Sequence record: OZ035799.1
Strand: one strand, 5' to 3'
DNA: 64,000 nucleotides
From: Justusliebigvirus alia
The notes under the pieces were generated by a model. That model was not told where the DNA came from and ran no database searches. It was given only the letters and a program-made list of their open reading frames with translations. Below, piece after piece: positions 20,544 to 42,537 of the stretch; within the stretch, counting starts at the first letter, position 1, and the number at the start of each line of letters is the position of its first letter. The translations under genes were made by a program, and so were the position numbers.

Positions 20544-21356
20544 TTACTTAGTCAAATGATCTTCTATCATTTTTATGAAAGCAGGATTGCTAAAAGCATC
20601 TGCTGCCTTTTCTCTATAAACAAAGACTCCTCTATCTTCGTAAAGAAGAGTTTCTTCGTAATTAATTCCTGGGTTAACAACAATCATTTTTGTACCCATA
20701 CTAAGTGCAGGGAATAATTCCCAATTAAAATTGATAACTTGGTTTGAACATCCTACTACAACAACCAAATCTTGCATGGTCAAAGTATCAAACAAGTGAG
20801 CCATATCTGCATACAAAGGTGCAGCCTCACCAAAAAATACAACATTAGGCTTCACCCAATTATAATCATCTATGTTTATACTATTGTAACCAATGTCTAC
20901 CAGTGTTTTGTAATCTCCAGGATGCATACGGTAAACTACTTCAGGAAGATACCCGTGCACGTGAATAACAGAATCCCTGTCCACACCTGCTCGCTCTAGT
21001 AGATCATCAACGTTTGTTGTCAAGTTTACTACTTGGTTAGGATATTCCTTAAACCACTTTGCTATTTGAATATGTGCAGCATTAGGTTGTACATCTTTAA
21101 GCTCAACACGTCTTTTGTTATAAAATTCGTGTGTTTTGGCATACAAGTCCATACCGTTCTCGTCTACACCACCGACCACTGGAAGATCTGGTGATGTTCT
21201 CACACGATAACCTGCTTGGAAAGCTCCAATATCGCAGATCTCTTCTAAATCCCATTCTTCCCATAAGGCACGACCACTATCTGTGTCTGTTCGGAATGTT
21301 CGAATCCCACTGTCTGCACTTAAACCAGCTCCACTAACAAAAATTACTCTTCGCAT
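20544..21356 (-). CDS. Sir2-family (sirtuin-like) NAD-dependent protein lacking the zinc-ribbon module
   Basis: motifs GAGLSADSGIRTFR, QPNAAH, TTNVDDLLERAG, HVHG, VVFFGE; no CxxC pairs. Confidence 0.75.
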   Translation of the reverse strand: MRRVIFVSGAGLSADSGIRTFRTDTDSGRALWEEWDLEEICDIGAFQAGYRVRTSPDLPVVGGVDENGMDLYAKTHEFYNKRRVELKDVQPNAAHIQIAKWFKEYPNQVVNLTTNVDDLLERAGVDRDSVIHVHGYLPEVVYRMHPGDYKTLVDIGYNSINIDDYNWVKPNVVFFGEAAPLYADMAHLFDTLTMQDLVVVVGCSNQVINFNWELFPALSMGTKMIVVNPGINYEETLLYEDRGVFVYREKAADAFSNPAFIKMIEDHLTK

Positions 21357-22685: not shown

Positions 22686-23675
22686 CTATTCCTCCATACA
22701 TTTAAGAATATGTGCAATGACAGGTATAGTCCAACCGTTACCTAACATCTTATATGCTTGTGTATTACTACTCACTTTAAAGTAGTCATCTGGCACACCT
22801 TGCAAACGGCAACACTCTTTAACGGTTAACTTTCTATAATGTACGCCTTCACTCAATTTTTCAAAAGCATCTAAATATCTTCCAGGTGGAATGTAAGCTA
22901 ATAGTACGTCTTTCGGCACAGTCGTGAGGCAACGAGTTTTTTCACTGTCCTGAACTTCCAAACAATGTACCAAACGATCAGTTTTAGATGTACTACGTTT
23001 GCCATTTTCATTAATTCTACGCCCATATATTGCTGCTGGATAAAAAACCAGTTGTCTGCGACTCTTTTCAAAATACTGTTCTATATTACCACCTTTGGCA
23101 TAATTTGCATCTATGCAATAAGCCTTATCTCTGTCTACAATACTATCATCTTCAATGATATCTTGCAACACTTCATTGGTAATATCCCAGGGTTTTATTT
23201 CCCAGTTGCACCAGTATAAACGTTGTCTATTCTGTGCCGTGAAATCTGCGGAGTTAATGAATACGGGATCAACACCTAAGTAACTTGTGATCACGTTTTC
23301 CCACTCCACTTTCATCTTAACGTTTTCGAGCATGAACTTAACATTAGGGTTAAACTTTTTAATATGTTCAAGAATCTCAACATATTCGAAGAATAGCTTA
23401 GATCGCGGATCTTGAAAGTTCAAACCCTTACCAGAAGAAGAGAAGCCTTGACACGGACTACCACCTAACAAAAGATCAATTTCTCCCCACGGAATATCCC
23501 ATTCTCTCCATTTTGTAACATCGCCTAACTGAATAATATCTGGAAAATTTGCTTGGCTTTCAGCTATGGCGAATTTGTCTAATTCTGAAGCATAATATGT
23601 ATCTACTTCAATACCTGCACTTTTTAGCGCAAGCATTCCTCCTGACATACCATCAAAAAGACTTAAAACTTTCAT
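22686..23675 (-). CDS. DNA cytosine-5 methyltransferase
   Basis: motif I FDGMSGG, motif IV GSPCQGFS, motif VI ENV. Confidence 0.8.
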   Translation of the reverse strand: MKVLSLFDGMSGGMLALKSAGIEVDTYYASELDKFAIAESQANFPDIIQLGDVTKWREWDIPWGEIDLLLGGSPCQGFSSSGKGLNFQDPRSKLFFEYVEILEHIKKFNPNVKFMLENVKMKVEWENVITSYLGVDPVFINSADFTAQNRQRLYWCNWEIKPWDITNEVLQDIIEDDSIVDRDKAYCIDANYAKGGNIEQYFEKSRRQLVFYPAAIYGRRINENGKRSTSKTDRLVHCLEVQDSEKTRCLTTVPKDVLLAYIPPGRYLDAFEKLSEGVHYRKLTVKECCRLQGVPDDYFKVSSNTQAYKMLGNGWTIPVIAHILKCMEE

Positions 23676-27715: not shown

Positions 27716-28378
27716 TTATTTAATATTCAATTTTGCACAAAGACGTTGTACCGCTTTGGCATCGAACAAACTCCCACGAATAGTTCTCTTTCCTGATTCA
27801 TTCAGATGCTTTGCAATCGTCATATATGGCGTTCTACAAGCTCTGTATGCAACTAAAGAATCTTTTAAAGAAAGCGCAAACTCTCTTGAGCGTTTTGCTT
27901 CTTCCGTTTTCGTATAATCTGTTCTTTTGTATTTAGGGTTTGCTGCACCAAGAAGCGTTCCCTTCGCTTTTGCTACCTTAAGGCTCTTCTTAACACGATC
28001 AGATATTGCACGAGCCTCTTCTTCTGCCAGAACTGCTAAAATATTTATTATCATATTTTCAGCGGAGGGCATAGTTGCAATCCGTACATTAATCATCTCT
28101 AACAAGGTTGCAACAGAAGCTGTGTTACGTCCAAGACGGTCAACCTTAGCAACAACAAGTGTAGCACCTGTTTCTTTGCAAAGATTAACAGCTTTTACAA
28201 GCTCTCTACGTTGCTTCCAATCGCCTTTACCAGAATAAAACTCTGCAAAGCTACCTACAATAGTATAATTTTCTTGTGAATCCAGGAAGCGTTGGATATC
28301 TGCTTCCTGTGATTCTATACCATACTGGTTGCCTTGTTGTTTCTTCTTAGAAAGTCGATGATACAGTACAAACTTCAT
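27716..28378 (-). CDS. small serine recombinase (resolvase/invertase family) with C-terminal HTH
   Basis: N-terminal YHRLSKKKQ...GIESQ and LVVAKVDRLGRN motifs. Confidence 0.75.
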   Translation of the reverse strand: MKFVLYHRLSKKKQQGNQYGIESQEADIQRFLDSQENYTIVGSFAEFYSGKGDWKQRRELVKAVNLCKETGATLVVAKVDRLGRNTASVATLLEMINVRIATMPSAENMIINILAVLAEEEARAISDRVKKSLKVAKAKGTLLGAANPKYKRTDYTKTEEAKRSREFALSLKDSLVAYRACRTPYMTIAKHLNESGKRTIRGSLFDAKAVQRLCAKLNIK

Positions 28379-28651: not shown

Positions 28652-28890
28652 TCGTTGTTACGAGCACTTTCAAGAACCTTGACAACTTCTGCATACTCTA
28701 CAGCTAAACCAGCACACACTTCAGCTTGTTTTGCAATTGCTTGTTTAAAGAACATAGCGATTGCAACACTCTGTGTTGTGTGAATGTTATCTGCTTTAGT
28801 TGATACATGAAGATCAAAATCTTCTTCATCAAAGGTGAGTTCCATAGTAACAATAAATTTCTCGGTCATAAAAATGCTCCTCTTAAACAA
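28639..28890 (-). CDS. hypothetical protein (83 aa)
   Basis: ORF. Confidence 0.5.
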   Translation of the reverse strand: MFKRSIFMTEKFIVTMELTFDEEDFDLHVSTKADNIHTTQSVAIAMFFKQAIAKQAEVCAGLAVEYAEVVKVLESARNNDWEE

Positions 28891-29392
28891 AATAGAAAGG
28901 TTGAGTTAAACCCAGCCTGTTTTTTGGGTCGTAGACGTACCAAGCATATGCTGTCTTGTCAGTACCACCTGCAACAAAAGATGGTCGTTCAGAAAGAACG
29001 ATCAAATTTGTTGGTGGATTCTGTTTATGGAATTCCCTTCGTTTAATAGACTCTAGGAACCCAAGACGCAACAAGTATATGCAAACGTCTGCTTCTTTTA
29101 AGCTCTTTTGCAAGAACTCAAGTGCAAGTCTGAATGGTGGATTTGTGATTATAATATCCGGCTTAGTATGCCATTCGTGGTTAAAATAATCCTTCCCTTC
29201 TTCTAACTCACAATATTCTGATCCTTCTGGAAAATGTTGATAAATTGCAGCAGCAGCGCCTTTACACGGTTCTGCAAAAATAAAACCTTCTTCTTTAAGG
29301 TTATTAAAATCTATTACACTAAATAATGCATTTATACATTTTTGTGGAGTAGGATAGTAATCAGTTGGTGGACGATCATACTTATTTGCCAC
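28883..29392 (-). CDS. SAM-dependent methyltransferase, probable DNA N6-adenine/N4-cytosine type
   Basis: IITNPPF catalytic motif, DYYPTP N-terminal motif. Confidence 0.55.
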   Translation of the reverse strand: MANKYDRPPTDYYPTPQKCINALFSVIDFNNLKEEGFIFAEPCKGAAAAIYQHFPEGSEYCELEEGKDYFNHEWHTKPDIIITNPPFRLALEFLQKSLKEADVCIYLLRLGFLESIKRREFHKQNPPTNLIVLSERPSFVAGGTDKTAYAWYVYDPKNRLGLTQPFYFV

Positions 29393-29852: not shown

Positions 29853-30506
29853 TTAATTATCAGAGGACACTTTATCAAGTTTTTCAGAGACTGTCAATAC
29901 TTTTTCTTGTGATTCTTTCATTTCTGCTAAAATACTTTCAGCTTCATCACTATCAGGATCACCAGTCAACAGCATACTAATTAGTTGCTCCTTGCTGAAG
30001 TTCAGAATATCTTCCGCTGTTAGCTCCAGTTGTTCTTCGATCTCTTCGATAAAAGTTTCACCGCCGGAAAAAGCATCTCGTAGTTTTGCAACTTCCATCG
30101 CTTCTTCTGGAGTTGCCCCTGCATCTAAAGCTGCTAAAGCAAAATCTGCCCCACTACCAACAGCATAATAATCTTCAGTTAAAGGATATGCTCGCGTGGG
30201 ATTATTACCCTCGTGCATATAAATTTTACCGTCTGGGTGAACAACCAATGCCACAAACTCTTCATCTTCTTTATCAGGATCTGACTGGATCACCAAACCT
30301 GGGATTGTCTCTTGTGCTGCTTGGCATTGTAAGTTTTGTTCGAACCAAGAAAAGAAAGTCAGGATAGAAGACAGACGTCCTGCACCACCAACAAGGTAAT
30401 CCCCAATTTTACGCACTTTCTTGAAATTTAAAGTGTCTACACGACTACCTACTGTTACTTTACCGTCAGACAGAATTTTGTTACGTGTTGCAATAATTGT
30501 TGTCAT
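29853..30506 (-). CDS. HslV/ClpQ-like N-terminal-nucleophile peptidase (proteasome beta-subunit fold) with acidic C-terminal extension
   Basis: starts MTTIIA (Thr2 nucleophile after Met), KKVRK, AVGSGADFALAALDAG resembling HslV GSGG region. Confidence 0.7.
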   Translation of the reverse strand: MTTIIATRNKILSDGKVTVGSRVDTLNFKKVRKIGDYLVGGAGRLSSILTFFSWFEQNLQCQAAQETIPGLVIQSDPDKEDEEFVALVVHPDGKIYMHEGNNPTRAYPLTEDYYAVGSGADFALAALDAGATPEEAMEVAKLRDAFSGGETFIEEIEEQLELTAEDILNFSKEQLISMLLTGDPDSDEAESILAEMKESQEKVLTVSEKLDKVSSDN

Positions 30507-31801: not shown

Positions 31802-31824
31802 AAAAGGGGCTTTCGCCCCTTTGT
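31802..31824 (-). terminator. terminator hairpin GGGGCTTTCGCCCC
   Basis: recurrent hairpin with flanking A/T runs. Confidence 0.6.
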
Positions 31825-32485: not shown

Positions 32486-32752
32486 TTACTCCGCAATCTG
32501 AGCCATGAATTCACGTAGTTCAGAAAAACCTCCTACGTGGGTTAGCTGTTCACCATCTTCCACAAAAATCTGAGGAAATGTGCGTGGTAGAACACCTGTT
32601 TTCTCTAAAACCAGATTCTGAATCTGATCTAAAGAATAGTCTTCATCTAAGGTAAGATATTTAAAATCCTGTTCACGCTGTTCTAGTAGAATCTTAGCGT
32701 TAGTGCAGAAAGGACAATTTGGTTTACCGTAGATAATAAAATTCATTTTCAC
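32486..32752 (-). CDS. glutaredoxin-like protein (NrdH/Grx-type)
   Basis: CPFC active-site motif in IYGKPNCPFC. Confidence 0.75.
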   Translation of the reverse strand: MKMNFIIYGKPNCPFCTNAKILLEQREQDFKYLTLDEDYSLDQIQNLVLEKTGVLPRTFPQIFVEDGEQLTHVGGFSELREFMAQIAE

Positions 32753-33579
32753 TCCTTGTTTAAAAGTATAGTTAAAGTTCTTACAATACCGCTATCAACA
32801 CTTCGCGGATTTAAAGTAGGATCTGTTTTTAAATAAGATGTTGCTGGTCTGACTGCTTTGGAATTATAGGTTGAAGCAGATACAGGATTAACTGTAACAG
32901 ATAAATCTATAACAAGAAATATCTTTCGTGCAAAATCATACCAAGAAATATAATCTGCACCTGCATAGTGTACAATTTTACTATTTACACCATCTTTTAC
33001 AAGTTTAAAAATTGTTTCTGCAAGATCAGGTGCATAAGTAGGACATGACAAATGATCACATACTACATTAAATTCTTTTTGACCACCGTTGTAGCGTTCC
33101 AACATAGTTTTCAAAAAGTTATGTCCAAATTCACTATAAACAGAAGCTGTTCTGATAATAAGTGCTGTAGGACAAACTGTTTGTACTAAAGTTTCACCTA
33201 ATTGTTTACTGTAACCGTAGGTGTTCAAGGGGTTTGTTTTACTATCTTCTGTGCCAGCAACACGCCCATCAAAAACATAGTCTGTTGAAATATGTACAAA
33301 CTGTATCAGTAAATCATTACATGCTTTGGCAATGTTTGTTGCACCGTATGCATTAACATTTATACAGGTGTTAACATCTTCTTCAGCTTTATCTACTGCC
33401 GTGTAAGCCGCACAATTCACAACAACATCAGGCACATGCTGTACAAGACTATTCATAACATCTTTAAAGTTGGTAATGTCTACATCACTTGCTTCAATCA
33501 AAATAACATCTTCGGGCGCAACTTTTGCCAAAGACTGTCCTAATTGACCTTTTGAACCAAAGATTAAAAATTTTGTCAA
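32749..33579 (-). CDS. rmlD: dTDP-4-dehydrorhamnose reductase
   Basis: Rossmann N-terminus FGSKGQLG and RmlD-like length; operon with rmlBAC. Confidence 0.75.
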   Translation of the reverse strand: MTKFLIFGSKGQLGQSLAKVAPEDVILIEASDVDITNFKDVMNSLVQHVPDVVVNCAAYTAVDKAEEDVNTCINVNAYGATNIAKACNDLLIQFVHISTDYVFDGRVAGTEDSKTNPLNTYGYSKQLGETLVQTVCPTALIIRTASVYSEFGHNFLKTMLERYNGGQKEFNVVCDHLSCPTYAPDLAETIFKLVKDGVNSKIVHYAGADYISWYDFARKIFLVIDLSVTVNPVSASTYNSKAVRPATSYLKTDPTLNPRSVDSGIVRTLTILLNKE

Positions 33580-34130
33580 AATATGATCTCCTTTAGTGTT
33601 TTGGCTTGCTGATCTTTTTGTGACAAGATAGGTTTAAAATTAATATCATTAAAGATTAAATCAAAACCCCAATCAATATTGATATCTGGATCATTCCACG
33701 CAAGACTACATTCTGAAGTCGGATCGTAATATTCTGTACATTTATATTCAAAATCAGCAATGTCACTAATCACAACAAAGCCATGAGCGAAACCAGGAGG
33801 AATCCAAAATTGTGTTTTATTCTTTTCAGATAAGAGAACACCTACCCATTCTCCAAATGTTGGACTACCAACCCTAATATCTACAGCAACATCATAAACT
33901 TCACCACGAACACAACGTACTAACTTCCCTTGTGGGTTTTTCTTTTGAAAATGAAGCCCACGTAGAACTCCTCGAATAGAACGTGAATGGTTATCTTGGA
34001 CAAAGTTTTGTTTACCTATGTATTGATCATATAAAGCCTGATTAAAACTTTCTAAGAAAAAACCACGTTCATCTCCGTAAACGTCAGGTTGAATGATCAA
34101 CAAATCTTCGATTTTTGTTGCTTGAATCAT
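33576..34130 (-). CDS. rmlC: dTDP-4-dehydrorhamnose 3,5-epimerase
   Basis: motifs RGFFLESF, FVQDNHS, GVLRGLHFQ. Confidence 0.85.
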   Translation of the reverse strand: MIQATKIEDLLIIQPDVYGDERGFFLESFNQALYDQYIGKQNFVQDNHSRSIRGVLRGLHFQKKNPQGKLVRCVRGEVYDVAVDIRVGSPTFGEWVGVLLSEKNKTQFWIPPGFAHGFVVISDIADFEYKCTEYYDPTSECSLAWNDPDINIDWGFDLIFNDINFKPILSQKDQQAKTLKEIIF

Positions 34131-34142
34131 TTAATCTCCCCT

Positions 34143-35012
34143 TTATTTTAATTTAAGTAAATACTTGCCGTAGTCTGTTTTACTTAAAACCTCTCCAGAA
34201 CTTTTTACGGAATCTAAAGTAATCCATTCATTTTTAAAAGCAATCTCTTCCAGGCATGCAACCTTCATACCTTGTTGCTTTTCTATTGCATGAACAAATT
34301 GAGATGCTTCCATAAGACTTTCATGTGTCCCTGTATCCAGCCAAGTGAAACCTCTTCCTAGTTTACAGACACGTAAAGCCTTTTCTTTCCAGTACATCTC
34401 ATTTATATCTGTAATCTCTAACTCCCCTCTAGCAGAAGGTTTAACGCTTTTAGCTTTCTGTATAACAGAATTATCGTAAAAGTACAAGCCTGTGATTGCA
34501 TAGTTGCTTTTTGGTGCTTTTGGTTTTTCTTCAATACTCACCACTGTACCTTCAGAATCAAACTCAACAACACCAAATCTTTCAGGATCATTTACGTGAT
34601 ACCCAAAAATATTAGCTCCACCATTCTTCTCAATATGTTCTTTAGCAGAATCTAAAATGCTACCAAAACTCTGACCAAAGAATAAATTATCACCTAGCAC
34701 AAGTGCTACAGAATCTTCACCAATAAAGTTCTCACCAATAATAAATGCTTCTGCTAAACCTTTTGGGCTGTTCTGTACTGCATACTGTAGGGAAATACCA
34801 AAAGAAGAACCATCACCTAGGAGATTTACAAAATTAATTTGATCTTCTGGTGTTGTAATTATTAGTATTTCCCTAATTCCAGAAAGCATTAGGACAGAGA
34901 GTGGATAATAAATCATAGGCTTATCGTAAATTGGTAATAGTTGTTTACTAACCCCTTTAGTAACTGGGTAAAGTCTTGTTCCACTACCACCTGCTAAGAT
35001 AATACCTTTCAT
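34143..35012 (-). CDS. rmlA: glucose-1-phosphate thymidylyltransferase
   Basis: N-terminus [39 protein letters not shown] nearly identical to bacterial RmlA. Confidence 0.9.
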
Positions 35013-35020
35013 ACTCCTCC

Positions 35021-36010
35021 TTAAACTTTATTTTCCCACCACTCTTTGTTATCTACATACCAATCAATGGTTGAATAAAGTTTTTCTTCAAATGTGCCTT
35101 TAGCTTTCCACCCTAATTCCTTTTCAATCTTATAAGGATTCACTTCATATCTTAAATCATGCCCAGGTCTATCTGTAACCATTTCAATGAGGCTACAAGC
35201 ATCTGTTTCAGATGGATACACCGCATCCATATAATCACAAATCATATAGATTACATCAATATTAGTTCTAGGGTTTCTGCTCCCAATATTATATGTTTCT
35301 CCAGATTTGCCTTTAGTTACTACTAGGTGTAATGCTTCTGCGTGATCGTCAACGTATAACCAGTCTCTTACTTGAAGACCATTGCCATAAACAGGGATTG
35401 GTTTATGCATCAAGATATTTGTTATCGTTTTAGGTATTAGTTTTTCTGGATGATGATACGCTCCAAAATTATTTGAACAATTTGTTATAACTGTCGGAAT
35501 ACCATAAGTACGATGCCACGCTCTTACCAAATGATCGCTTGCAGCTTTAGATGCAGCATATGGACTACTTGGTTTATAAGGATTCTGTTCTGTAAACGGA
35601 TAATCCCCTTCTTCCATATCACCATACACTTCATCTGTTGAAATATGATGAAACATTTTAAGATTTGATTTATCTCCCATTAAACGAACAGCTTCTAGAA
35701 GATTAAATGTTCCAACAATATTTGAATTTATAAAAACACTCGGTGATGCTATTGAATTATCTACGTGACTTTCTGCTGCAAGATGCATTATATAATCTGG
35801 GTTAACATCTGCCACAATCTTAGCAGTTAACTGAGCATTTGTCAAGTCAACACGACAAAACTTTACATTAGGTGTTTCTGATAAATTTCTAGGGTCTGAA
35901 GCGTAACCCCATTTATCTATAACGTAAATATCATTCTTAGTATTTTTAGCCAGGAAACGAACTACCGCACTTCCAATAAAACCTAAACCACCTGTTACTA
36001 AGTATTTCAT
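35021..36010 (-). CDS. rmlB: dTDP-glucose 4,6-dehydratase
   Basis: [15 protein letters not shown] Rossmann and C-terminal RPGHDLRY...WYVDNKEWW motifs. Confidence 0.9.
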
Positions 36011-36204
36011 TTAGTCTCCTTCCAATTATTCCCTTCAGTAAAAATAATACCTTCATAAAACAACCATCTGGAACCTTTTTCAACAGGAACAGGAAGCTCT
36101 TCTTCAGTAAAGTTATAAACCTCTCTAGCATCTTCTAAAAGTGACGCAAATGTTTTTGGACTTACTGTTACGCGAGGAGCATTGATCAGTTGATCTAGCA
36201 TCAT
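36007..36204 (-). CDS. hypothetical protein (65 aa)
   Basis: start refined to internal ATG with RBS AAGGAGGA. Confidence 0.45.
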   Translation of the reverse strand: MMLDQLINAPRVTVSPKTFASLLEDAREVYNFTEEELPVPVEKGSRWLFYEGIIFTEGNNWKETK

Positions 36205-36217
36205 TCTACTATCCTCC

Positions 36218-36544
36218 TTACCAAACGTGTTGAGAAATAATAGTTTCCGTTTCAATGTTATATTTTTCAAGAAGTTGTGCGTAGGCTTCTTTTGCATTCT
36301 TATTTAGTTGCTCAAGATCTACAGCTACACTTCCTTCGCCACCTTCTAAATAAATCCCATATATGCAATAAGATGCATCAGCGTCATAGAAAGGTGAGAT
36401 ACGGCTTAAATCAAGACCTTCTTGTAAGAACCAATTAAAATCTCCATCAAATTCTTCTTCAATTCTAGGATCTTCTCCTACAGCCTCTTCCCATTTATTA
36501 AAAGGTGCACCCTGTAACATACGCCATTCAGTGGCAACTCCCAT
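36218..36544 (-). CDS. hypothetical acidic protein (108 aa)
   Basis: ORF. Confidence 0.55.
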   Translation of the reverse strand: MGVATEWRMLQGAPFNKWEEAVGEDPRIEEEFDGDFNWFLQEGLDLSRISPFYDADASYCIYGIYLEGGEGSVAVDLEQLNKNAKEAYAQLLEKYNIETETIISQHVW

Positions 36545-36680
36545 TATCTTCCTCCTCTTCTTTTTCTTCCGTGTGAACGAAGCCTAAACCGTTACAATTC
36601 CAACACGGAATAAATTGTTCCATACTAACAATAAAATTCCCAGTACCACCGCAGATAGGACAAATACTTACATCGTCCAT
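36528..36680 (-). CDS. small zinc-ribbon protein (50 aa; CPICGG...CWNC)
   Basis: ORF not in track. Confidence 0.45.
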   Translation of the reverse strand: MDDVSICPICGGTGNFIVSMEQFIPCWNCNGLGFVHTEEKEEEEDNGSCH

Positions 36681-36682
36681 TA

Positions 36683-36889
36683 TTAAAGCTCCTCAATCTT
36701 TTCTAACATCTGTTTTAACTCATTCTCTGTTAATAGAATTTCTGTGATACCATCATAAGTTTCTACCATCAGAGTAAAACATTTCTCTCCATCTGAACAT
36801 ATAAAAGCACCACCTTCATCTTCTGTTAAGTCAGAATTAATATCTACATCAACAAAATCAATCATCTTTTTCTCCTTTGATAATTTCAA
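36683..36889 (-). CDS. hypothetical protein (68 aa)
   Basis: ORF. Confidence 0.5.
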   Translation of the reverse strand: MKLSKEKKMIDFVDVDINSDLTEDEGGAFICSDGEKCFTLMVETYDGITEILLTENELKQMLEKIEEL

Positions 36890-37076
36890 ACTTGGCTACA
36901 CCATTAACTATAATATGACCGCAAGACATAACTCCTAGCCAATGATCACCATTCTTTTTTAAACGTTTGCCGTAAACATCACAGAAACCATTCTGTAATT
37001 CGGAAGCCTCATAAGAGGCTCCCTTTTCGAAAACGTCTTTGAAGTCAGAAATTAATCCAACACAAAGTAGTTTCAT
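36858..37076 (-). CDS. hypothetical protein (72 aa)
   Basis: ORF. Confidence 0.45.
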   Translation of the reverse strand: MKLLCVGLISDFKDVFEKGASYEASELQNGFCDVYGKRLKKNGDHWLGVMSCGHIIVNGVAKFEIIKGEKDD

Positions 37077-38161
37077 TAGAAGTCTAACTCCTCGTCATCA
37101 CTTACATCTTTATTTGCTGAATTCAGTTTGTAAGCTGTAATTTGGATCTCCTGTGCTGCTGCTTGAATTTGATCTGGATTTAACCAAACATCCATCCAAG
37201 GCAGTGGACTTTTCTTCGGTGCACGGAATTTGTGTTTCATTTTCAGTCTGCGATAGATAGGCGCAGCATTGAAGTAAACCCAAAGTTTGAACAACTCTGC
37301 GTTACCACCAACGATAATCCTTCCTTCACTAAACAGATAGTCACACCAATCTTCCTCTTGTCCAACTACCGTGTCAAGAATTTCTGTCAGAACGTCGATA
37401 TTATCTTCGTATACTTTTCTCCAGACAGGATCTTTCAGCAGTGCATCAATAATAGCATAATCCATTTTAACGTGCAATAGTTCATCCAACATAATTTTTT
37501 GAATGAGTTTAGCTGCACCTACAAACAGTTGCTGCTCTGCTAAGGCAAATGTTGCAGCAAAAGATGATATGAATTGAATGCCTTCCAGACCGATAAGTGC
37601 AATCATTCCTTTCAGAATCAGTAGACGAAGATTATCATCCTTCTCAATCAGACCTAGAGCATATTTATGTCCTGCCTCTGCCAGATCACTCATTATCTCT
37701 TCAACTATACCCATCCTCTGGAAGATTCTTTCATTCTCCATGATCTGATCGATAACTTCATTTGGATTAGGGATACACTGACGAATAATTTCAGAATATG
37801 TCAAAGCGTGTAAAACTTCCATCTCTGATTGCTTCATCATCATTGCACATGCTTCGTTGTTGCTTAAAAATGGTGCAAACAAAGTGATGATTGATTTAGC
37901 AAGTGAATCATTTTCCCATTGGAAAGATAGGTTTTTGATCATAACATCATAGTTGCTTTTAGAACAAGCTACGAAATCTTTTCGTGTCTGATCTAAGTTT
38001 ACTTCGTTTTCATCCCAATCTTGCTGTTTTTGTAGTTTGTACAGACGATGCATTTCTGGGTATGTTACATTAATAGAATCAAAAATACCTAACTGTTCTC
38101 CCAAAAATACAGGGTAGAAACCTTCTTTGTAAGTGTCGTTGTATAAGTTAATTGCTGCCAT
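37076..38161 (-). CDS. nrdB: ribonucleotide reductase class Ia beta subunit
   Basis: ferritin-like R2 size and motifs; adjacent to nrdA. Confidence 0.85.
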   Translation of the reverse strand: MAAINLYNDTYKEGFYPVFLGEQLGIFDSINVTYPEMHRLYKLQKQQDWDENEVNLDQTRKDFVACSKSNYDVMIKNLSFQWENDSLAKSIITLFAPFLSNNEACAMMMKQSEMEVLHALTYSEIIRQCIPNPNEVIDQIMENERIFQRMGIVEEIMSDLAEAGHKYALGLIEKDDNLRLLILKGMIALIGLEGIQFISSFAATFALAEQQLFVGAAKLIQKIMLDELLHVKMDYAIIDALLKDPVWRKVYEDNIDVLTEILDTVVGQEEDWCDYLFSEGRIIVGGNAELFKLWVYFNAAPIYRRLKMKHKFRAPKKSPLPWMDVWLNPDQIQAAAQEIQITAYKLNSANKDVSDDEELDF

Positions 38162-38523: not shown

Positions 38524-40785
38524 TTACATCTTACAAGCCTCACAACCGGATTCTTCATCCTCTTGAGCGAGTGAGGTTGCCGATTTTGTTCTGCTATTTA
38601 GATAGTACAAAGATTTACCACCAAGTTTTGCAAACTGAAGAATATATTGCATTTCTGATTTAATGGATAAACGACCACCTTCCATCTTAGAATAGTCAAT
38701 CCACTTATCACATGATGCACCTTGATCTAAGAATTTAGTCAACAGTCCATATGCTTCAGCCATATCTTTATCTGGTGTATCCCAAGCCGATTGGTAAATA
38801 TCTTTTAGTTTATCGTAGTCTGGCACAATAAACAGAACATTACCCTTTTGGCTTTGTTTATAAACTATAGTATCACGTACAGGATACACAGAGTTAGTCG
38901 TATTACTTACAAGACTACTGGACTCATTTGGAGCAATAGCTGCTAATACGCTATTTCGGATACCACCTTGTGCAATGATATCTTGTCGTAAACCTTCCCA
39001 ATCCATTTTAAGTTTAAAATTGCCAATATCGTCTACAGCTTTAGCGTAGGTGTCAATAGGCAACCATCCTTCAGGCCATTTGGTTTTATGCATCCATTCT
39101 GCATTACCTTTCTCTTTTGCCAAACGAAGAGAAGCTCTTGCTAACCAATAATAATGTCTTTCTGCTAATTCGTGAATTAGTTTTTTGCCGTAAGGATCTG
39201 AATAAGTAACAAAATTACTTGCCAGATAATGTGCAAGGTTTGTAATACCTACACCGATAGACCTACGTGCTTTAGCAGTGATTTCGTTATGTTTAAACGG
39301 ATACTGCATTGTTTCAATAACATTATCAATAGTTAGAACGGTATAATATGCAACATCTTCATATTCTTCTGGTGTAACACGACCAGCTACAATAGAAGAC
39401 AGGAAGCATAATGCCAATTCTTGATCTTCTGTATTCTCACCCGTGAAAAGATCAGTCATATTGTGAAATGCTTTCGTAGGTAAGAAAATTTCTTGGCACA
39501 AGTTTGACTGATAAATAACATCCTTAAACGGAGTATGTTTATTAACATTGTCAGCAAAGAACATATAAATACGTCCTGTCTCTGCTCTTTGTGTAATAAT
39601 TTCTGCCAGAAGATCTCGTGCTTTTACAAACTTCTTCTTAATTCGTTTGCGACTAACTTTTTCATATACTTCTTCAAACTCTTCCTCGCTTTTATAAAGC
39701 GCCTCATAGAGTTCTGGTGCTTCGTCATAACTGACTAGCATCCAATCTTTACCTTTTGCTGCACGACGCAGGAAAGCATTGTTTACTACGATAGAGTAAT
39801 CAAGTTTATCTACTCGTTTTTCACTAACCGTAGTTGGGTTTTTCAAACGTACCAGATCTTCAAAGTCAGGCTCTAATATTGTGAACGTTACTGTTGCACT
39901 TCCACCACGACTTGCTTGTTTTGATGCTCCAACACTTGTTTCCATCCACTTCAGATATGGTAAAAGACCACCGTGAACGATACGGTTGTTCTTAACACCT
40001 TGTCCTGTAGCACGGGTTTGGAGGTTAACACCAATACCTGCATTATTCAAGGTATATTCATGAGCAAGATAGTTAGCAATTGCTAAAGATTCTGCTGTAT
40101 CATCTGCTCTAAACAGACAACAAGAAGCACTACCTTTAATCTTAGTACGCAAAGTTGTTAAATAAGGCGATGGTAAATTAATCTTAAGATCACTTACGTA
40201 GGTATATAGACGTTTAATGTCTTCTACTCTGCGATCTTTTGGTTGAATTTCCATTACCTTCATTGCTACACCAATGAATAAAAACTGTGGTGATTCAAAA
40301 ACAACATCATTGATCGCATCTTTCACAAGATACTTATCAACCATCTGGCGCAGTACGGAATAACCATAAGTTAGGTTTTTATCGTGATTGACAATTTTAC
40401 CAATCTCAATAATTTCTTCTTCTGTATAATCCATTTTTCCCCAATAGCCTTTACTTACAGACATATTGTAGAAATCCAGGAGGGAGGGGATATTGTGATA
40501 TCCCCCATGAGCCTGTTTATAAATCATACCAAGAAGTAACCGACCTGCCATATCACTATATGCCTGATCTTTCTTATCAATACATGCTGCTATCATAGCT
40601 TTATGTAAATCACGAGTAGGCACACCGTCGTAACAACGTTTAACAGCTTCAAGTTCAATTTCAGACCAATTTAATTTACCAGCAGCAAACTCTGACCATT
40701 TACGAAGTTTTTCTGGATTAAATTCTTCTTTCTTGCCGTTTGTTTTTGTTACATAACGGATAGATTTGCTTAGATACTGAGTCAC
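38524..40785 (-). CDS. nrdA: ribonucleotide reductase class Ia alpha subunit
   Basis: 753 aa, N-terminal ATP-cone and catalytic-core motifs. Confidence 0.9.
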   Translation of the reverse strand: MTQYLSKSIRYVTKTNGKKEEFNPEKLRKWSEFAAGKLNWSEIELEAVKRCYDGVPTRDLHKAMIAACIDKKDQAYSDMAGRLLLGMIYKQAHGGYHNIPSLLDFYNMSVSKGYWGKMDYTEEEIIEIGKIVNHDKNLTYGYSVLRQMVDKYLVKDAINDVVFESPQFLFIGVAMKVMEIQPKDRRVEDIKRLYTYVSDLKINLPSPYLTTLRTKIKGSASCCLFRADDTAESLAIANYLAHEYTLNNAGIGVNLQTRATGQGVKNNRIVHGGLLPYLKWMETSVGASKQASRGGSATVTFTILEPDFEDLVRLKNPTTVSEKRVDKLDYSIVVNNAFLRRAAKGKDWMLVSYDEAPELYEALYKSEEEFEEVYEKVSRKRIKKKFVKARDLLAEIITQRAETGRIYMFFADNVNKHTPFKDVIYQSNLCQEIFLPTKAFHNMTDLFTGENTEDQELALCFLSSIVAGRVTPEEYEDVAYYTVLTIDNVIETMQYPFKHNEITAKARRSIGVGITNLAHYLASNFVTYSDPYGKKLIHELAERHYYWLARASLRLAKEKGNAEWMHKTKWPEGWLPIDTYAKAVDDIGNFKLKMDWEGLRQDIIAQGGIRNSVLAAIAPNESSSLVSNTTNSVYPVRDTIVYKQSQKGNVLFIVPDYDKLKDIYQSAWDTPDKDMAEAYGLLTKFLDQGASCDKWIDYSKMEGGRLSIKSEMQYILQFAKLGGKSLYYLNSRTKSATSLAQEDEESGCEACKM

Positions 40786-41565: not shown

Positions 41566-42537
41566 TCACCATTTTGTATGGTTAGTCAAAAGTTGACGAT
41601 GTTGAATCCAACCGCAGAAGTTTCCACTCCACAAACGATGTTTACGATCCATATGTGTAATACCTTCTTCCCAAGAAGTAGGGAACGGAGGAATATTAAT
41701 ACCACCTTTCTGTTGTTTTAATCCTGACAAATCCATTTCTTTCATTGGCGTTGCCTGGTGTTCAAACGGAGATGCATGTACCTTTTGTCCAGACAGCAAA
41801 CGAGAATAGATATCCAATGCTTTATCTTTAGTATCATTCAACTTACGATAACTTACCTGAGCGCAACAAGAAGCTGAAATAGCTTTTGCTTCCTCTTCTG
41901 TCAACATTTTCTCGTTGGAGAAGGTTTCACCCAAGAAATAACGGATCATACCAGTTTCTGGATCTCGATCACGATTAACGTAAGGTGTATGCCATTCCCC
42001 TGGGAAAAGAAGATATGGTTCAGAAGATTCATACAGTTTTTTAATTTCTTTAGCAAGAGCCTCAATAGTAGGATCTGCATCAGCATCTACACGCAACCAC
42101 AAGAAGTTTTCTAGCTCTGTAGTGGTTACTACAGTCTTCATACGCTGGAATGGTTCTAGTAGGCGGTTTGCAACCTGTTTATGATAACCAGCAAGGGCAA
42201 ACTCTTCTGCAAAACGTGCAGCACTTAGTGCAGCCAAGTCCCACCATTCTTTTGCAGTGTAACCTGCATCAATCAGGGCATCGTGATCTGTGCCTTTATC
42301 TTGCATACCTGGTTGGTTAGCACCAAAACGATAAGGACGTGCTGGAGATTGCCGTACCATTTCAATTAGAGTTTTAACAGGGATAGCTCGACTTGATGCG
42401 GCATTACGAGAAAACAAACGATGCGTCATCAATTCAGAGTGAATGATTCGAGGATATTCAAGTTCAAAGGTAACAATATCCTTACCTTCAGATGTTTGAG
42501 AGTGTGCAATAATTTTTGCTGAAATAGAGTTTGTCAT
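41566..42537 (-). CDS. thyX: FAD-dependent thymidylate synthase ThyX-like
   Basis: ThyX-like signature HR-x7-SSR in ELMTHRLFSRNAASSRAIP. Confidence 0.6.
   Translation of the reverse strand: MTNSISAKIIAHSQTSEGKDIVTFELEYPRIIHSELMTHRLFSRNAASSRAIPVKTLIEMVRQSPARPYRFGANQPGMQDKGTDHDALIDAGYTAKEWWDLAALSAARFAEEFALAGYHKQVANRLLEPFQRMKTVVTTTELENFLWLRVDADADPTIEALAKEIKKLYESSEPYLLFPGEWHTPYVNRDRDPETGMIRYFLGETFSNEKMLTEEEAKAISASCCAQVSYRKLNDTKDKALDIYSRLLSGQKVHASPFEHQATPMKEMDLSGLKQQKGGINIPPFPTSWEEGITHMDRKHRLWSGNFCGWIQHRQLLTNHTKW

Follow-up and report, generated by a model that had tools for sequence, protein, structure and literature searches.

Lytic myoviruses of the phi92-like group (subfamily Stephanstirmvirinae) carry an operon for the synthesis of deoxythymidine diphosphate (dTDP)-L-rhamnose; it has been annotated in phAPEC8 (JX561091) since 2012, and we found it annotated in well over 100 genomes of the subfamily. 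In the paper describing Justusliebigvirus alia, the member of this group studied here, the rml operon in the DNA-metabolism region was termed 'peculiar', and it was hypothesized that hydroxymethylated nucleotides are rhamnosylated, i.e., that the phage DNA is rhamnosylated (Olsen 2020; PMC7552041). The BASEL paper reported a 'putative dTDP glycosylation machinery' in phi92-like phages, which, PaulScherrer included, were nevertheless 'exceptionally susceptible' to restriction-modification (RM) systems (Maffei 2021; PMC8594841), and both points were restated in an iScience paper of 2024 (PMC10844046). The phages have very broad host ranges (PMC8594841, PMC10844046), and their receptors are the lipopolysaccharide (LPS) core and surface glycans, probably the enterobacterial common antigen (ECA) (PMC8594841). 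The rml operon of alia and its relatives is thus already known, annotated, and published. However, our literature search found no paper identifying the acceptor of the rhamnose and no nucleoside or virion glycan analysis for Stephanstirmvirinae. Here we analyze the rml operon of alia in a 64,000-nucleotide stretch of its genome (OZ035799.1; hereafter the window), and ask what the rhamnose is likely to be used for.

The rml region (3,525 bases) is 100% identical to positions 116928-120452 of the alia record OZ035770.1, of which the window is the terminal 64 kb (window w = OZ035770.1 w + 84442). About 55 phage records match this region at 95-100% nucleotide identity, with the rml genes and a glutaredoxin gene annotated in nearly all of them; the operon of PaulScherrer is 98.6% identical to that of alia. 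The cassettes of phAPEC8, phi92, and relatives are orthologous and share the gene order, and nothing essential differs. A first-pass annotation made from the letters alone had read four consecutive minus-strand genes as RmlB, RmlA, RmlC, and RmlD, and this reading was borne out, since each product passes its equivalog cut-off:

35021..36010, minus strand: rmlB, dTDP-glucose 4,6-dehydratase, 329 amino acids (aa) (NCBIfam TIGR01181)
34143..35012, minus strand: rmlA, glucose-1-phosphate thymidylyltransferase, 289 aa (NCBIfam TIGR01207)
33576..34130, minus strand: rmlC, dTDP-4-dehydrorhamnose 3,5-epimerase, 184 aa (NCBIfam TIGR01221)
32749..33579, minus strand: rmlD, dTDP-4-dehydrorhamnose reductase, 276 aa, TTG start (NCBIfam TIGR01214)

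The same four enzyme families, with conserved catalytic residues, are encoded by the rfb/rml loci of E. coli and Salmonella (RfbB, RfbD, RfbA, RfbC), and the low G+C content of the alia genes is like that of bacterial O-antigen clusters. Unlike the bacterial loci, the alia cassette lies in a lytic phage, inside a ribonucleotide-reductase module, and lacks adjacent glycosyltransferase (GT), flippase, or polymerase genes. The gene order also differs, being B-D-A-C in enterobacteria and B-A-C-D in alia.

All four proteins scored above the equivalog thresholds and fell into the expected Pfam families. RmlB (441.7 bits against TIGR01181; cut-off 365.1) aligned over residues 1-327 to residues 1-343 of Salmonella RmlB (1g1a; 393 bits) and keeps the GGxGFIGS motif, the STDE triad region, and PYxxSK, with the equivalents of T133, D134, E135, Y167, and K171 identical to those of 1g1a. 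RmlA scored 473.3 bits against TIGR01207 (cut-off 360.65) and 419 bits against Salmonella RmlA (1iim); its GGSGTRL, SKQLLP, LGDN, EEKP, and WLDTG motifs are invariant across 33 phage and 67 bacterial sequences, and the peptide quoted in the first-pass annotation corresponds to its residues 1-39. A seemingly altered regulatory site in RmlA (FFGQSF compared to FYGHDL in Salmonella) was considered and rejected as a peculiarity of the phage, because the 67 closest bacterial RmlA proteins share F-[W/Y]-G-Q-G-F. RmlC (260.4 bits against TIGR01221, cut-off 155.75; 219 bits against Salmonella RmlC, 1dzr) conserves the equivalents of His63, Lys73, and Tyr133; its C-terminal SQKD, which lies beyond the printed alignment, presumably corresponds to the Asp170 region of the Salmonella enzyme. 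RmlD is the most diverged of the four (253.9 bits against TIGR01214; cut-off 224.05). Its closest solved structures are Firmicutes proteins, and it aligned to B. anthracis RmlD (3sc6) with 154 bits and with GxxGQLG, STDYVFDG, and YGYSK conserved.

Alignments of the four proteins to solved enzymes over most or all of their length contained no frameshift and no stop, and the catalytic residues are retained; the frameshifts or lost catalytic residues that the first-pass annotation had named as a refutation are thus absent, and the rml assignment stands. The genes abut or overlap by 4 nucleotides (nt), as rmlD does with rmlC, and a consensus scan found no terminator-like site inside the block. Judged from sequence, the four genes form an intact and complete dTDP-L-rhamnose pathway, which would convert glucose-1-phosphate and deoxythymidine triphosphate (dTTP) to dTDP-glucose, then to dTDP-4-keto-6-deoxyglucose, the epimerised keto-sugar, and finally dTDP-L-rhamnose.

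The cassette is flanked by nucleotide-metabolism genes and small ORFs:

38524..40785, minus strand: nrdA, class Ia ribonucleotide reductase alpha subunit
37076..38161, minus strand: nrdB, class Ia ribonucleotide reductase beta subunit, at the upstream edge of the insertion described below
36007-36297, 36218-36544, 36528-36680, 36683-36889, and 36858-37076, minus strand: five small open reading frames (ORFs) between nrdB and rmlB, function not assigned
32486..32746, minus strand: grx, glutaredoxin with CPFC motif, 86 aa from the ATG at 32746 (PF00462, 45.4 bits; cut-off 22.9)

The first-pass annotation had placed a CPFC glutaredoxin and then nrdAB after the rml genes. The CPFC motif was correct, but the order was not: followed in the direction of transcription, the rml genes come after nrdA and nrdB and before grx, so that they stand between nrdB and grx. 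The gene order in phAPEC8 is as in alia (nrdA, one ORF, nrdB, four small ORFs, rmlB-A-C-D, grx, one ORF, lysozyme, phoH). Vequintavirus Murica, taken as the outgroup, has grx directly after nrdB and no rml genes in the part of the genome examined; likewise, grx directly follows nrdB in Klebsiella phage KP13-16, a member of Stephanstirmvirinae, and a genome-wide local tblastn search of KP13-16 found no RmlA, RmlB, RmlC, or RmlD. Because nrdB and grx are adjacent without rml in both phages, gene order implies that nrdA, nrdB, and grx formed the ancestral module and that the rml cassette, together with the small ORFs preceding it, was inserted there in an ancestor of Justusliebigvirus and Phapecoctavirus. 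It follows that glutaredoxin is part of the ribonucleotide-reductase module and not of the rhamnose pathway. The 'peculiar' location is then explained by insertion at a permissive site, with no need for a nucleotide-related function, and this anatomy is new as far as we could find. The rml genes are apparently co-transcribed with the nucleotide-metabolism genes.

Several observations imply that the cassette is old and maintained. Between alia and PaulScherrer, the ratio of nonsynonymous to synonymous substitution rates (dN/dS) was 0.02-0.04 for rmlB, rmlA, and rmlC (the value of 0.36 for rmlD comes from only nine substitutions), indicating purifying selection on the cassette. Between Justusliebigvirus and Phapecoctavirus, Rml proteins are 54-72% identical and NrdA and NrdB 84-87%. 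The G+C content at third codon positions (GC3) of the rml genes is 0.20-0.23, and both base composition and GC3 match those of the flanking phage genes. In a neighbor-joining tree of RmlA (top 120 hits only, no bootstrap), an acquisition phylogeny having been proposed in the first-pass annotation, the phage sequences formed one clade, and the closest bacterial proteins were ≈70-72% identical (Vibrio, Providencia, Pseudoalteromonas, and others). The cassette therefore appears to have been acquired once, long ago; a recent capture from E. coli was rejected, given the phage-like GC3, E. coli rfbC matches that are only 66-71% identical in nucleotides to phage rmlC, and the distance to the closest bacterial RmlA. 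A further candidate for an independent rml phage, 'Acinetobacter phage MD-2021a' (CAKLQH020000002.1, 254 kb), was rejected as a bacterial contig with glnE, ilvE, and aspS; it also contains a cardiolipin synthase gene and an rffG-rmlD-rfbA-rmlC cluster and is evidently a bacterial chromosome. Among the relatives, four records labelled 'Campylobacter phage A145, B15, C3, A110a' with jejuni hosts (MG065645, MG065650, MG065656, MG065689) encode proteins 97-99.7% identical to those of E. coli Justusliebigvirus and Phapecoctavirus, with equal genome sizes; apparently the hosts are mislabelled, or lysates had been mixed.

Klebsiella phage FKP3, whose NrdB is 88% identical to that of alia (84-88% for phAPEC8 and FKP3), carries a reduced version of the insertion at the same site: nrdB, two small ORFs, rmlC, rmlD, and grx. 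Both rml genes of FKP3 are intact and retain the catalytic motifs (77% identity for rmlC, 62% for rmlD); neither rmlA nor rmlB occurs anywhere in its genome. As is well established, ECA synthesis supplies all Enterobacterales with dTDP-4-keto-6-deoxyglucose by way of RffH and RffG, while RmlC and RmlD are confined, as far as is known, to strains with rhamnose-containing glycans. FKP3 thus appears to retain exactly those steps that a host may lack, which implies selection on the product dTDP-L-rhamnose and argues against consumption of dTTP as the purpose. With the phage gene as query, rfbC was detectable in 2,125 of 5,426 complete E. coli genomes, a lower bound given the sensitivity of blastn. 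The cassette would then give the phage its own supply of dTDP-L-rhamnose irrespective of host O-antigen type, and we consider it very probable, on these comparisons, that it makes dTDP-L-rhamnose and is kept for that product.

Use of the sugar requires a transferase. The first-pass annotation had recognized no GT next to the operon and had proposed searching the rest of the genome. The former holds for the entire window, which contains no GT genes, but not for the genome, because the search located three adjacent predicted GT genes ≈69 kb from rml, immediately ahead of those for primase/helicase and DNA polymerase:

OZ035770.1 46196-48386 (L004 10197-12387 in our numbering), minus strand: three adjacent predicted GT genes, GT-A187, GT-A228, and GT-B327 (PHROGs)

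PHROGs assigned all three to glycosyltransferase families, and GT-B327 matched PF13524 above the Pfam cut-off. GT-A228 matched PF20691 (TAGT, TET-associated GT) with 24.1 bits, below the cut-off of 27.5. AlphaFold models of homologs have canonical GT-A folds: P0121, 77% identical to GT-A228, with a predicted local distance difference test score (pLDDT) of 89.8, and P0139, 99% identical to GT-A187, with a pLDDT of 95.2. The GT-A homologs carry invariant DDD or DxD motifs, and an R...DDD...ED pattern is invariant in GT-A228. Structural neighbours of GT-A228 are generic GT-A enzymes, and those of the GTs include PBCV-1 and Mimivirus GTs. The three proteins are acidic (isoelectric point (pI) 5.3-6.2), and none has a membrane-spanning segment (maximum Kyte-Doolittle 19-residue mean ≈1.1). 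The curated PaulScherrer annotation also lists the GTs, with GT-B duplicated (two paralogs). GT-A228 homologs are present across the rml-bearing E. coli genera, in 55 records at at least 95% identity and 71 at 60-80%, compared to 54 and 77 for RmlC.

We tentatively favor the explanation that dTDP-L-rhamnose is the donor for a phage-directed glycan, which would be built by the soluble GTs of the phage (two GT-A and one GT-B) with a virion protein as the preferred acceptor, forming a glycan coat, over bulk DNA. We have moderate confidence that rml supplies glycosylation by the phage's own GTs and low confidence that the acceptor is a virion protein and not a host envelope glycan, DNA, or another target; the whole chain, from donor through GTs to a virion acceptor, we hold to be somewhat less probable than an even chance. 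A known system comparable to such a scheme is the virion glycosylation of mycobacteriophages of the Che8 type, which is reportedly the subject of Freeman et al. 2023. Like alia, these phages encode soluble GTs, and GT-A228 is distantly similar to the right-end GTs of 88 mycobacteriophage genomes (≈26% identity, 66-88% coverage, E 1e-6 to 1e-7). Two papers tie this right-end class to glycosylation of capsid and tail tube. Unlike the Che8 type, alia has a Gram-negative host, GTs in the replication module, and a full sugar-nucleotide pathway, and the glycosylation of its virion proteins is a prediction. Distant homologs of GT-A187 also occur in two unrelated phage contigs of ≈50 kb. In one (L018) the gene lies between the terminase and portal/capsid genes, in a cluster that also has a GT2, a polysaccharide deacetylase, and two methyltransferases; in the other (L019) it is accompanied by an NDP-sugar 4,6-dehydratase/epimerase, a DegT aminotransferase, and more GT-like genes. 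The methyltransferases and the adjacency to head genes resemble the setting of mycobacteriophage virion glycosylation. Mimivirus and chloroviruses make their own UDP-L-rhamnose for capsid or fibril glycans and encode their own GTs. These giant viruses use a UDP-linked, two-enzyme route of eukaryotic type, whereas the alia route is the bacterial dTDP-linked, four-enzyme one.

Several observations weigh against a virion glycan made from the rml product. The rml genes and the GT cluster lie 69 kb apart and do not always occur together: no rml gene accompanies the three GTs of KP13-16, and in FKP3, which has rmlC and rmlD, GT-A187 is intact, GT-B is apparently broken up into three frames, and GT-A228 is represented by a distant paralog alone. 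Co-occurrence of rml and the GT cluster was accordingly rejected as proof of a link, and in the E. coli genera it is one phylogenetic event and not independent evidence. The alia GTs sit in the replication module and not in the structural module, inspection of the sequences of capsid, decoration, tube, and sheath proteins revealed no convincing Ser/Thr-rich C-terminal tails, and our literature search found no published glycosylated virions for Stephanstirmvirinae.

The rival that survives best, although we regard it as rather unlikely, is remodelling of the host envelope, in which phage or host transferases use dTDP-L-rhamnose on the LPS, O-antigen, or ECA of the infected cell; this could block superinfection or keep progeny from sticking to infected cells and debris. 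Sugar-nucleotide and LPS genes recur as phage auxiliary genes, and a review ties phage dTDP-L-rhamnose genes to O-antigen and superinfection exclusion. The receptors of phi92-like phages are themselves surface glycans (PMC8594841), and the generic GT-A and GT-B folds are like those of polysaccharide builders. Moreover, an independent rml-like cassette is present in a cyanomyovirus, the T4-like Synechococcus phage S-B43 (Kyanoviridae; L012 8091-10345), where four consecutive genes, located downstream of nrdA and nrdB at a distance of a few kb, encode a TagD-like nucleotidyltransferase, a 4,6-dehydratase, an RmlC homolog, and an RmlD-like reductase. The S-B43 RmlC is only 46% identical to that of alia, and its nucleotide carrier and product may differ, because the first enzyme is TagD-like. 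Genes for a secreted cell-wall hydrolase and a Ter-like cluster linked to membrane stress are also found close to the alia GTs. On the other hand, none of the three GTs has a membrane-spanning segment, and no Wzx, Wzy, WaaL, or GtrABC-type protein was found among the scanned proteins. Seroconverting systems of the GtrABC/Oac type combine a membrane flippase, a bactoprenol glycosyltransferase, and a serotype-specific transferase and usually belong to temperate phages; alia is lytic, no Gtr-, Wzx-, or Wzy-type family appeared in our scans, and its GTs lack hydrophobic segments. A lytic cycle is probably also too short to replace much of the existing surface glycan. Finally, E. coli K-12 is a good host for these phages and makes no O-antigen, which counts against envelope remodelling.

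The Ter-like cluster (TerD, vWA-TerF, TelA, and TerC, all above Pfam cut-offs) spans L004 14392-25301 (OZ035770.1 ≈50.4-61.3 kb), includes a predicted lipoprotein, a macrodomain protein, a phosphoribosyltransferase, and a HAD hydrolase, and adjoins the secreted hydrolase, which is of the SleB type. It is conserved in PaulScherrer and KP13-16, and the FKP3 annotation has TelA and a membrane protein. In the replication region, the alia DNA polymerase gene (859 aa, L004 5066-7645) is without the intein annotated in the PaulScherrer polymerase (L002 41715-45029); the PaulScherrer UvrD/Rep helicase also contains an intein. FKP3 has many HNH endonuclease genes, one of which splits the terminase.

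Rhamnosylation of the phage DNA, possibly at sparse or sequence-specific sites and carried out by the GTs beside the replication genes, is in our view improbable. Its attraction lies in gene context (the rml operon is surrounded by genes of nucleotide metabolism, and primase/helicase and DNA polymerase follow directly on the GT cluster) and in GT-A228, whose R...DDD...ED pattern resembles the R...DDD...EDY/F signature of DNA-modifying GT-A enzymes and whose match to the TET-associated GT family is sub-threshold (24.1 vs 27.5 bits). In addition, alia encodes its own C5-cytosine methyltransferase. There is also precedent in RB69 and DLP3, which glycosylate DNA with phage-encoded UDP-arabinose genes and several GTs; like these arabinosyl-5-hydroxycytosine systems, and the glucosyl-hydroxymethylcytosine system of T4, alia combines a phage-encoded supply of nucleotide sugar with several GTs. 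However, systems of the RB69/DLP3 type depend on a base hydroxylase or hydroxymethylase homologous to ThyA; in them all cytosine is replaced, and the DNA becomes resistant to restriction. By contrast, alia has ThyX only, and its relatives are RM-sensitive (PMC8594841) and digestible by HincII. In a study of phages of avian pathogenic E. coli (APEC), HincII cut all phage genomes except those of ESCO10, ESCO47, and ESCO58. Matched from hit lists, the cut set includes isolates of Justusliebigvirus (ESCO8, ESCO9, and ESCO32, all sequenced) and of Phapecoctavirus (ESCO25 and ESCO37), and the collection includes isolates with an rml operon ≈99% identical to that of the window. A Pfam scan covering 30 uncharacterised proteins (164 aa or longer) of alia and PaulScherrer, from which small or very divergent enzymes could escape, found no ThyA-family hydroxymethylase or hydroxylase, TET/JBP, or other 2-oxoglutarate (2OG) oxygenase. 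The GTs are acidic, KP13-16 carries them without rml, and the portion considered of the table in a published hidden Markov model survey of viral GT-A DNA glycosyltransferases contains no Phapecoctavirus. Bulk glycosylation of DNA, one of the uses named in the first-pass annotation, is therefore disfavoured, because the relatives are sensitive to RM systems and cut by HincII and no enzyme making hydroxymethyl- or hydroxy-pyrimidines was found.

The thymidylate synthase matters here, as the sugar modifications known from phage DNA begin with enzymes of the ThyA family. The only thymidylate synthase encoded is of the ThyX type:

41566..42537, minus strand: thymidylate synthase, divergent ThyX-type (flavin-dependent), 323 aa (PF02511 Thy1, 36.9 bits; cut-off 24.8)

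The Pfam match is partial (residues 22-170), the RHR...S-type motif reads THRLFSRNAASSRA, and the homolog in Murica is annotated as ThyX.

Slightly less probable still is another acceptor, such as a non-structural protein of host or phage, by analogy with the rhamnosylation of EF-P by EarP in other bacteria, or a small molecule. The GTs are soluble, of cytoplasmic type, and come from the replication-gene region, and the phage encodes several other host-manipulating enzymes (Sir2, a macrodomain protein, a phosphoribosyltransferase, and an NAD salvage pair). Nevertheless, there was no Pfam match to EarP or to toxin-type glycosyltransferase families, and this is a residual category without positive evidence.

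That the pathway controls nucleotide pools, serving as a sink or buffer for dTTP or host dTDP-sugars with the rhamnose product irrelevant, is very improbable. The cassette does lie inside a nucleotide-metabolism operon, between nrdB and grx, but insertion at a permissive site accounts for this position. FKP3 has lost rmlA and rmlB, which contain the only dTTP-consuming steps, and retains intact rmlC and rmlD. Moreover, with a genome of 37% G+C, the phage brings its own ThyX and thymidine kinase as well as two ribonucleotide reductases, implying that dTTP is being built and not wasted; the draining of dTTP and dTDP-sugars raised in the first-pass annotation is disfavoured on both counts. Least credible of all is a passenger cassette without current function: although KP13-16 and Vequintavirinae evidently manage without rml, the cassette is intact in more than 130 sequenced genomes, in two or more genera with protein-level differences of 28-46% between them, with low dN/dS within the genus (0.02-0.04) and invariant catalytic residues.

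Some features of the neighbouring genes are recorded here. The most likely start of grx is the ATG at 32746, behind an AAGGAG Shine-Dalgarno sequence, which gives the 86 aa annotated in relatives. The protein matches the thioredoxin domain family phrog_22, and none of the NCBIfam glutaredoxin equivalogs (Grx1, Grx3, NrdH) was reached at cut-off. The five small ORFs (36007..37076) are chained via short overlaps and form part of the DNA that parts nrdB from grx in rml-bearing phages. Matches were to phrog_27883 and phrog_15453, both families of unknown function. Equivalent small ORFs are present in phAPEC8; a homolog of ORF 36218-36544 is retained in FKP3, and neither of the two ORFs tested (36007-36297 and 36218-36544) has a homolog in KP13-16. 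ORF 36007-36297 is probably shorter than the 96 aa called, as PHROG 27883 aligns to residues 32-96 only and relatives annotate 65 aa; at 65 aa, its apparent overlap with the upstream 108-aa ORF vanishes. Below the rml-grx-endolysin block, the first terminator-like element in coordinate order is a hairpin:

31803..31822, called on the plus strand only: palindromic G+C-rich hairpin, between the endolysin gene and phoH (consensus scan)

The same scan found no minus-strand terminator between 38501 and this hairpin. Counts of promoter-like and terminator-like sites were not above those in shuffled sequence, and we claim no promoter.

Elsewhere in the window, the minus strand of this lytic phage encodes the orphan C5-cytosine DNA methyltransferase (22686-23675; PF00145, 150 bits), a small putative N6-adenine methyltransferase without Pfam match (28883-29392), a serine recombinase/invertase homolog (27716-28378), an HslV/proteasome-like peptidase (29853-30506), and a Sir2-family protein (20544-21356). 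On the plus strand, a gene for a phosphoribosyl pyrophosphate (PRPP)-synthetase-like protein (56072-56965) adjoins that of a nicotinamide/nicotinate phosphoribosyltransferase (57037-58770). Together with Sir2, these two make up an NAD-salvage set of a kind proposed to counter NAD-depleting defences; KP13-16 carries nadR and pnuC instead. Fifteen tRNA genes are arrayed at 59517-62140 on the plus strand, with two each of tRNA-Met, tRNA-Leu, and tRNA-Ser; the genome paper counted 13.

Taken more broadly, we consider it possible, but on balance unlikely, that a lytic coliphage uses its own pathway and three GTs to attach a rhamnose glycan either to its own virion or to DNA, there at sites too sparse for RM assays to reveal. 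A glycan-decorated virion would, if true, be the first described for a phage of a Gram-negative host to our knowledge. FKP3, with rmlC and rmlD only, and KP13-16, with no rml, provide natural comparisons for what is rhamnosylated. Members of Justusliebigvirus and Phapecoctavirus have among the broadest host ranges of coliphages and are included in therapeutic cocktails. If their particles are coated with rhamnose, or if they alter the host surface, then antibody recognition, pharmacokinetics, and host-range engineering would be affected.

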